64,000 nt of DNA from Candidatus Dormiibacterota bacterium (lineage in GTDB: Bacteria; Chloroflexota; Dormibacteria; CF-121), in NCBI GenBank assembly GCA_035544955.1, contig DASZZN010000012.1, positions 154,685-218,684 on the forward strand. Direction: 5' to 3'. The number at the start of each line of letters is the position of its first letter. The first letter of the stretch is position 1. Made by a program: the position numbers and the translations under genes. Shown in pieces: positions 37,481-37,797 of the stretch. The notes beneath the pieces are model-generated. The model was given only the letters and a program-made list of their open reading frames with translations, did not search any database and had not been told where the DNA came from.

Positions 37481-37605
37481 GTTCGCATTCTAAGCCCTGC
37501 ATGTTGGTTTATCAACAAGGTACTAACACTAGGCCTAGTGGTTTCGTAATGTCTCACCCACGAGGGGCTGATTTCCTAAGGCATCCAGGAGTCTATAATC
37601 GTGTT

Positions 37606-37797
37606 CCAGCGTGGTGAAGTTAGCTTAGCCTGGCCTAAAGCAGGGGACCAGTAATCCTTGATCATGGGTTCAAATCCCATACTTCACCCGCTGTATAACA
37701 TTGACTTGTTCACTCTTGCTATTTGTATAAATAGGCCACTGGTCCCTGCTTTGGTGGCCAAAGCGCAAAGAAGCCCCCATCGGGGGGCTTTTTGTTT
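37606..37797 (+). ncRNA. structured 5' leader upstream of chlD: candidate cobalamin riboswitch (alternative reading: tRNA-like element 37613-37689)
   Basis: A putative -10 TATAAT at 37594 precedes the RNA. Motifs in order are GGUGAAGU, AAAGCAGGGGACC (AAGGGAA-like), GGGUUCAAAUCCC, CCCGCUGU, then AGGCCACUGGUCCCUGCU (B12-box-like), then the intrinsic terminator AAGCCCCCAUCGGGGGGCUUUUU. The 37613-37689 segment also folds as a tRNA-like cloverleaf with an 8-bp acceptor stem and a canonical T-arm, but its anticodon loop is non-canonical (no U33). Confidence 0.4.
37771..37797 (+). terminator. rho-independent terminator (GC hairpin plus T-run), possible riboswitch expression platform
   Basis: AAGCCCCC-ATC-GGGGGGCTTTTTGTTTT, about 275 nt upstream of the chlD start. 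Confidence 0.6.

Follow-up and report, generated by a model that had tools for sequence, protein, structure and literature searches.

The locus considered here lies in a 64,000-nucleotide (nt) stretch of contig DASZZN010000012.1 (GenBank assembly GCA_035544955.1) from a Candidatus Dormiibacterota bacterium; this stretch is referred to as the window and supplies all coordinates unless another contig is named. Between an acyl-CoA dehydrogenase gene and chlD, the window contains a horizontally acquired islet that carries genes for a 259-amino-acid (aa) orphan protein and a DUF3800 protein, a small-RNA gene converging on the DUF3800 gene and, on the side of chlD, a TATAAT box followed by a structured element and an intrinsic terminator (Table 1). 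The initial annotation had taken this element for a leader of chlD-chlI that resembles a cobalamin (B12) riboswitch and also mimics a tRNA. The element is identified here as a tRNA gene, and it can be said with high confidence that this gene is carried in the foreign islet and is unrelated to the regulation of chlD.

Table 1. Features of the islet and its tRNA gene in the window, with tRNA genes found beside related cassettes on other contigs
Feature	Position	Strand	Evidence or remark
TATAAT -10-like box	37594-37599	+	read from the sequence; tRNA 5' end 14 nt downstream; no good -35 box
tRNA gene	37614..37689	+	ARAGORN and Rfam RF00005
tRNA-Thr details	anticodon AGU 37650-37652; C33 37649; discriminator C73 37688; G-1 37613	+	
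3' trailer (external transcribed spacer)	37690..37766	+	9-bp hairpin at 37734-37759
Intrinsic terminator, GC hairpin and U-run	37767..37797	+	terminator scan, stem 37774-37786; folds
Horizontally acquired islet, ~2.73 kb	35306..38038	.	flanked by the acyl-CoA dehydrogenase stop codon and the promoter region of chlD
Promoter-like site of the islet operon	37515-37487	-	promoter scan
259-aa orphan protein	36701..37480	-	islet operon, first gene; direction away from the tRNA
DUF3800 (RNase H-fold) protein, 348 aa	35628..36674	-	second operon gene; Pfam PF12686, E 1.3e-7
Small-RNA gene	35536..35650	+	converges on the DUF3800 3' end; RNA ~35568-35650
Small-RNA promoter TTGACA-18-TATACT	35536-35565	+	promoter scan, 11/12 consensus matches
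tRNAs beside DUF3800 cassettes	L108 2789-2864; L110 1736-1812; L112 38-115; L010 5782-5863	L110: -	

Identification of the tRNA gene

Two methods agree on the identity of the element. ARAGORN called a tRNA-Thr(agt) as the sole tRNA in the window, and the Rfam tRNA family RF00005 matched positions 37614-37688 over the full length of the model (model positions 1-71) with 51.6 bits against a gathering score of 29 and an E value of 3.6e-8, being the only Rfam family above its gathering score in the window. In the Rfam alignment, all four tRNA stems are paired and the variable loop comprises 4 nt. U8, A14, G18G19, A21, R37, G53-C61, U54U55C56 and A58 are all present, and the sole departure from these positions is at position 33, where the anticodon loop, CCAGUAA, carries C33 in place of U33. 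CCG stands after the acceptor stem, and an eighth acceptor pair, G37613:C37688, is possible. The cloverleaf is real and lies far beyond chance, and the possible eighth acceptor pair and non-canonical anticodon loop that the initial annotation had described were both confirmed. The segment 36030-38640 is reproduced at 100% identity in two independent Logan assemblies from different sequencing runs, and the tRNA region is therefore not an assembly artefact. Runs SRR12277192 and SRR12277193, which come from the source community, consist of DNA reads. ARAGORN and an Rfam scan of 37300-38100 were also used to look for a further, degenerate tRNA on the minus strand beneath the trailer, with no match.

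The sequence blocks that had been likened to cobalamin-riboswitch elements stand where they had been placed, as do the TATAAT box and the terminator (sequence reading and terminator scan), and their assignment has changed. GGUGAAGU at 37613-37620 is the acceptor stem of the tRNA, AAAGCAGGGGACC at 37638-37650 belongs to its D-stem and anticodon stem, GGGUUCAAAUCCC at 37667-37679 is its T-arm and CCCGCUGU at 37687-37694 is the 3' end of its acceptor; the block taken for a B12 box, AGGCCACUGGUCCCUGCU at 37733-37750, is antisense to the tRNA itself. The covariance models for the cobalamin riboswitch (RF00174) and its adenosylcobalamin (AdoCbl) variant (RF01689) matched nothing at gathering score in the 64 kb, and no cobalamin, AdoCbl-variant, T-box or other riboswitch family was found at E<=10 on 37300-38100. 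The weak Rfam matches that were obtained on this segment (Phe_leader, isrB and similar, E 0.13-10) were driven by the terminator and were discarded. The confident tRNA call, together with the lack of any riboswitch-model match, refutes the reading of the element as a cobalamin-riboswitch-like leader of chlD-chlI.

Insertion site of the islet

By its protein matches, the window belongs to a metagenome-assembled genome of Candidatus Dormibacteraeota. The insertion was delimited by comparison with four sister Dormibacterota contigs (L172-L175), in which ChlD is 84-92% identical. All four have the same gene order, namely histidine kinase, thioesterase, acyl-CoA dehydrogenase, chlD, chlI and lepA, with 43-108 nt between the acyl-CoA dehydrogenase gene and chlD in L172, L174 and L175 and one small extra gene in L173. 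For one ChlD ortholog (P0184), the gene call joins acyl-CoA dehydrogenase domains to ChlD in a 972-aa protein, which is probably a gene-calling read-through that reflects the tight abutment of both genes in islet-free genomes. Nucleotide homology to all four sister contigs stops at 35299-35308 and restarts at 38039-38058, and because it breaks at both ends, the segment of about 35306-38038 is an insertion with the tRNA inside. The tRNA can therefore be neither a native chlD leader nor a host tRNA that was used as an integration site. Neither a tRNA (ARAGORN) nor an Rfam match was found between the acyl-CoA dehydrogenase gene and chlD in the four sister contigs. The base composition also changes here: the window has about 65% GC and falls to 54-58% at 35-38 kb, with values within the islet of 0.47-0.59 against about 0.65 for the host. 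Separately, the GC content is 0.49 for the tRNA, 0.47 for the trailer, 0.55-0.58 for the islet genes and 0.64-0.66 for host genes.

The same comparison bears on the proposal that a cobalamin riboswitch, or another cis-regulatory leader, controls chlD-chlI, to which next to no probability can now be given. A location ahead of ChlD/ChlI-type genes, a terminator that might act as an expression platform and a superficial likeness of motifs speak for such a leader; apart from the missing riboswitch matches and the full account of the motifs by tRNA arms, however, the sister chlD orthologs have no such element upstream and no Rfam match there. Moreover, a conserved promoter-like motif of chlD, CTGGCTAGACTC (CTGGCTA(C/G)ACTC), lies at 38043-38056, downstream of the insertion and 15-25 nt before the chlD start, and is kept upstream of chlD in all five genomes (the window and L172-L175). 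It probably represents the promoter or leader element native to chlD, undamaged by the insertion. For annotation, a false riboswitch call is removed, and chlD-chlI in this lineage stands without a B12 leader.

It is likewise very improbable that a host tRNA gene served as the integration site and that the region is an attL/attR (attachment site) remnant. Genomic islands often enter at tRNA genes, and several DUF3800 cassettes are found beside tRNAs, but this reading is contradicted by synteny, as 4/4 sister genomes share the gene order and lack a tRNA at the site. In addition, no direct repeat of any tRNA segment occurs at the other islet end, no integrase is present in the islet, and the GC content of the tRNA is foreign; the one repeat derived from the tRNA is an inverted one, 85 nt downstream of the part of the tRNA to which it corresponds. 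Of the alternative offered in the initial annotation, a decayed tRNA or att remnant adjoining an inserted islet, the tRNA has thus been retained and the rest has not: the gene lies inside the insertion rather than next to it, no tRNA-derived direct repeat bounds the islet, and the structure is intact apart from C33.

Significant terminal inverted or direct repeats of the islet were not found. The best inverted match between its ends (35381-35415 against 37937-37971) was rejected because 83 of 1000 shuffles reach the same level, and tblastn searches with the neighbours of related cassettes detected no gene remnants at the islet ends. A 103-aa open reading frame at 37719-38030 on the minus strand was treated as spurious, since it has no homologs in any library and overlaps the terminator.

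The 3' trailer and its pairing with the tRNA

The terminator closes the tRNA transcription unit ahead of chlD, and the trailer that precedes it contains a segment, 37738-37760, that is antisense to positions 37631-37652 of the tRNA with 22 matches in 24 alignment columns, one mismatch and one gap. The tRNA parts covered are the D-loop, the 3' strand of the D-stem, A26, the 5' strand of the anticodon stem and the loop through the anticodon. The antisense score was reached by 5 of 5000 dinucleotide shuffles and by none of 1263 other segments of the 64 kb, and the energy of the trailer:tRNA duplex was reached in 2 of 300 shuffles. When the trailer is folded alone, a 9-bp hairpin plus the terminator is obtained. 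In the predicted fold of the 37607-37797 transcript, both the minimum free energy and the centroid structure use the trailer:tRNA duplex, and the T-arm is the only part of the cloverleaf left (-68.9 kcal/mol, z -3.1).

These predictions suggest that the duplex competes with the cloverleaf in the unprocessed transcript, and this two-state architecture of tRNA and trailer is probably what had looked riboswitch-like. The trailer may be a gate on maturation, a small RNA of the 3' external transcribed spacer (3'ETS) type or an accidental inverted duplication. In complementarity to the islet's antisense small RNA, or to its operon mRNA, neither the tRNA nor the trailer differed from shuffled sequences.

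Origin and proposed function of the tRNA

The body of the tRNA is nearest to tRNA-Gln and tRNA-Lys of T5-family phages, at 75-79% identity, which is generic similarity only. Its D-arm equals that of T5 tRNA-Gln(UUG) at 21 of 22 positions, with the long D-loop included, and the variable loop and T-arm also match. The T-arm, the 3' strand of the acceptor and the discriminator together agree with a phage tRNA-His at 25 of 28 positions, a similarity that is not significant alone (E 0.6). The matches to T5 tRNA-Gln(UUG) mark the scaffold as phage-like in sequence. Exact-pattern scans of the viral contigs of IMG/VR gave 10 chance matches in coding DNA without a tRNA, and then none.

The codon usage of the islet was compared with that of four host genes. 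Of the 32 Thr codons of the islet genes, 13 are ACT or ACA (ACT alone, 6); of the 90 in the host genes, 6 are ACT or ACA (ACT alone, 4). Both comparisons rest on small samples and are confounded by the GC content of the third codon position (GC3).

That the tRNA is an element of the islet, that it is recognized as a tRNA by two methods and that a terminator separates it from chlD are observations. The explanation favoured for them, with moderate confidence, is an expressed cargo tRNA of phage style with a self-pairing trailer in a 2.7-kb islet. Transcription would start a few bases past the TATAAT box and stop at the terminator to give a precursor of about 190 nt, from which RNase P, 3' processing and CCA addition would free a tRNA of 75-76 nt. 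The AGU anticodon would read ACU, a Thr codon, and perhaps further ACN codons, and the tRNA could supplement the A/U-ending Thr codons, which the islet genes use commonly and the 65%-GC host rarely. The C33/A34 anticodon loop may be tolerated or may be an adaptation of a mobile-element tRNA. Pairing of the trailer with the D-arm and the anticodon arm would most likely slow or gate maturation, or free the trailer as a small RNA.

Several points weigh against this explanation. C33 stands where U33 is almost universal, A34 in the anticodon is rare among bacterial tRNAs, and CCA is not encoded by the gene. The Infernal score of 51.6 bits lies below that of canonical tRNAs of other loci (59-76 bits). 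The promoter consists of a -10 box alone, and a scan that demanded both hexamers made no call there. No close relative of the tRNA was found in IMG/VR viral contigs, GenBank phages, plasmids or E. coli, and because no relatives were found, selection on the tRNA is not demonstrable by comparison. The codon argument largely repeats the lower GC content of the islet, and the role of the trailer is a thermodynamic prediction throughout.

The same points supply much of the case for the main rival of the cargo tRNA, which is a non-functional relic: a donor or phage tRNA that hitchhiked with the DUF3800 cassette and is decaying, with C33 and A34 as early inactivating mutations and the trailer as an accidental partial inverted duplication. 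The relic is favoured by C33 at a near-universal U, the low bit score, the missing CCA and the lack of relatives. DUF3800 cassettes of the close subfamily also lie 85-190 nt from ordinary tRNAs in at least four contexts (Lys, Pro, Trp and an odd Gly), and since these cassettes sit beside tRNA genes, co-transfer of a neighbouring tRNA is plausible. The relic is nevertheless considered rather unlikely. The stems and all other universal and tertiary positions are intact, although random decay should strike stems too; the -10 box and a strong terminator are retained; and two sequencing runs give the same sequence. A scaffold that is intact but for one anomaly, in the anticodon loop, speaks against decay at an advanced stage.

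A bolder version of the cargo tRNA starts from the acceptor end. G-1:C73 is the identity pair of bacterial tRNA-His, and the tRNA could be a deliberate chimera in which this pair is combined with the Thr anticodon AGU, a C33 loop and trailer-gated release. Such a chimera is regarded as quite improbable. If it existed, with RNase P keeping G-1 and histidyl-tRNA synthetase (HisRS) charging the molecule, His would be inserted at ACU codons, or else an uncharged tRNA mimic would result; either effect could work with the DUF3800 nuclease.

The islet proteins and the test of the tRNA as a DUF3800 partner

The 259-aa protein has just two relatives (in L001 and L002) among 5.8 billion proteins and gave no match in Pfam, PADLOC, PHROGs, NCBIfam or PDB sequence searches. 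Its AlphaFold2 model, built from three sequences, is of low confidence (predicted local distance difference test score, pLDDT, 58.6). A conserved core at about residues 25-150 comprises a long helix and a small helical domain with a helix-turn-helix-like sequence pattern, and conservation does not extend to the C-terminus, for which disorder is predicted. The genes neighbouring the two relatives gave no Pfam match.

Homologs of the DUF3800 protein number 174, from several phyla and about 50% identical to it, and its subfamily spans Chloroflexota, Actinomycetota, Eremiobacterota, Verrucomicrobiota and Proteobacteria. The literature assigns DUF3800 an RNase H fold and describes it as a nuclease linked to type VII retrons, Cas12a2/a3 loci and Cas13 (CASK) loci, and it recurs in CRISPR loci whose effectors, Cas12a3 and the Cas13 CASK system, cut tRNA 3' tails. 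DUF3800 is also tied to eleven unrelated structured RNA motifs, which are often followed by a terminator and occur on either side and strand of the gene (Weinberg et al. 2017, PMC5737381). This literature led to the hypothesis that the tRNA-like RNA is the partner of the islet nuclease. About 160 DUF3800 loci were gathered for this test, and no similarity to 37560-37800 (tRNA plus trailer) was detected in any of them, including the locus of the closest DUF3800 relative (L003, 86% identity), which also has no tRNA; in L001 and L002, the DNA upstream of the genes for the 259-aa relatives showed no such similarity either. Given this lack of recurrence, the tRNA was rejected as a conserved RNA that partners either DUF3800 or the 259-aa protein.

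DUF3800 genes of the close subfamily do lie 85-190 nt from a tRNA in at least four other contexts, with Lys-UUU, Pro-GGG, Trp-CCA and Gly-GCC tRNAs (Table 1). By a rough expectation of about 0.2 tRNAs per ~14 kb of immediate flank, four contexts are in excess. The tRNA genes concerned are unrelated and are mostly canonical and CCA-encoding, which fits islands placed beside tRNA genes and not a dedicated RNA. One of them is itself unusual: the tRNA-Gly(GCC) at L010 5782-5863 (the same as L011 3158-3239 and L014 2779-2860) has 82 nt, a 13-nt variable region and no encoded CCA, and lies 138 nt upstream of the DUF3800 gene, with a hairpin after it, in a metagenome-assembled genome of Candidatus Cybelea (Eremiobacterota). 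It is the second non-canonical tRNA observed beside such a cassette. An IS1595 transposase gene stands beyond the cassette in L010, and among the genes listed for L010 there is no integrase.

The convergent antisense small RNA

A conserved block of about 65 nt lies 3' of every DUF3800 gene of the close subfamily, and its opposite strand reads as a small-RNA gene. The general layout consists of a TTGAC(A)-16..19-TAnnnT promoter, hairpin A, an invariant GGUCGGCGG and a GC-rich, sequence-variable hairpin B, with a U-tract that overlaps the conserved LWKS-stop codons of DUF3800. The RNA would be about 80 nt long (roughly 65-85). In the window, hairpin A is followed by GGUCGGCGGAAG, hairpin B and a U-tract over the last DUF3800 codons. 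RNAalifold on 33 aligned loci showed compensatory changes in 13 of 22 pairs; 94% of cells were paired as against 32-53% with slid partners, and the observed covariation was reached in none of 500 shuffles. A covariance model (R1) built from the 33 small-RNA sequences scores 76.9 bits at 35568-35650 (+) of the window and matches 90 of the 91 DUF3800 loci searched, of which about 70 are distinct and outside the training set. The matches lie invariably on the strand opposite the DUF3800 gene, across its 3' end, and include genes that share just ~30% identity, among them those of Legionella, Marinobacter and Geothrix; L020, in which the DUF3800 gene runs off the contig end, is the only locus without a match. 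Cultivated carriers among L021-L091 include strains of Legionella, Marinobacter, Undibacterium and Colwellia.

The small RNA gave no Rfam match at E<=10 in the window and none at gathering score in 20 loci, and neither it nor the tRNA matched a DUF3800-associated family of Rfam 15, which holds at least DUF3800-I and DUF3800-IX. From sequence comparison, it is thus a widely conserved RNA across phyla that was previously uncatalogued (absent from Rfam), and it, and not the tRNA, is the predicted partner of this DUF3800 subfamily. Because the nuclease has its own dedicated RNA partner, the tRNA is best regarded as a passenger of the islet. The arrangement of small RNA and DUF3800 gene resembles, by analogy, that of type I toxin-antitoxin modules. 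DUF3800 genes with the antisense small RNA occur in four Legionella loci (L028, L029, L050 and L068), and in transposon sequencing (Tn-seq) of L. pneumophila, a strain-specific DUF3800 gene scored as essential and was listed with antitoxin genes (PMC7811196). An essential DUF3800 gene and the presence of the small RNA in Legionella together hint that the pair may behave as an addiction module. In two Acidimicrobiales contigs (L004 and L007), the cassette is situated in a prophage-like region with genes for a terminase large subunit, WhiB, an HTH_17 protein and an AAA_25 protein; from this setting, it appears that the module of DUF3800 and small RNA travels in phages too.

A direct role of the tRNA in the nuclease system could still take another form, in which a tRNA-shaped regulatory or decoy RNA acts as a substrate mimic, sensor or antidote of DUF3800 and the switch between cloverleaf and trailer duplex is its change of state. 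Such a role would suit a family whose genes pair with many unrelated structured RNAs and recur beside tRNA-tail-cutting CRISPR effectors; according to the predicted folds, the precursor is bistable, and the tRNA is divergent from the DUF3800 operon at a distance of 134 nt. Since the tRNA is absent from every other DUF3800 locus, however, this tie is judged improbable. The trailer is missing from those loci as well, that with the closest relative included, the subfamily already has a conserved RNA partner, and neither the tRNA nor the trailer is unusually complementary to the small RNA or to the mRNA of the operon.

Comparison with known systems

As an element, the tRNA is ordinary in kind, and it is its odd details and the neighbouring uncatalogued small RNA that are worth attention. 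The locus offers a clean case of a lone cargo tRNA that moved with a small, defence-like islet into a tRNA-free site, and the combination of C33, a His-type G-1:C73 pair with a Thr anticodon and a self-antisense trailer bears on how mobile elements may tune or disguise their tRNAs.

With the cobalamin riboswitches (RF00174, RF01689), the element shares only its location before ChlD/ChlI-type genes and a terminator; it has no covariance-model match, is not kept upstream of orthologs and is explained in sequence as a tRNA. The element resembles the tRNAs of phages and mobile elements, such as the T5-family cluster. As with those tRNAs, the gene is part of horizontally acquired DNA with a higher AT content than the host, and its D-arm, variable loop and T-arm are nearly identical to those of T5 tRNA-Gln(UUG). 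The codon type that it would decode may also be enriched in the genes of the element, in a small and GC3-confounded sample. Unlike the phage tRNA clusters, the islet holds a lone tRNA in 2.7 kb without phage structural or integration genes, and the tRNA has C33 in place of U33, the anticodon AGU and no close relative found in IMG/VR or GenBank phages. Altered anticodon loops have been described in phage tRNAs (PMC10264068). Bacterial tRNA-His is similar in that G-1 is encoded opposite C73 and that the 3' part of a phage tRNA-His matches at 25/28 positions; it differs in its anticodon, which is GUG and not AGU, and the similarity is not significant alone (E 0.6).

In E. coli, 3'ETS-leuZ is a tRNA 3' external transcribed spacer that acts as a small RNA. 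The islet trailer resembles it as a structured segment between a tRNA and an intrinsic terminator, with predicted co-transcription and base-pairing potential, and differs from it in being complementary to the D-arm and anticodon arm of its own tRNA and not to another small RNA.

The DUF3800-associated RNAs (DUF3800-I to -XI, drum and skipping-rope; PMC5737381) are comparable to the islet as a whole, in which a structured RNA with a terminator is found near a DUF3800 gene. The tRNA with its trailer departs from them in not recurring with DUF3800 genes. The antisense small RNA is like them in being conserved, covarying, followed by a terminator and present in several phyla, and unlike them in belonging to no Rfam family and in its fixed geometry over the 3' end of the gene, on the opposite strand. 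With this small RNA at about 100 distinct DUF3800 loci in many phyla, the puzzle of the DUF3800-associated RNAs gains a defined gene pair, namely a nuclease gene and an antisense RNA with its own promoter, the terminator of which is embedded in the last codons of the gene.

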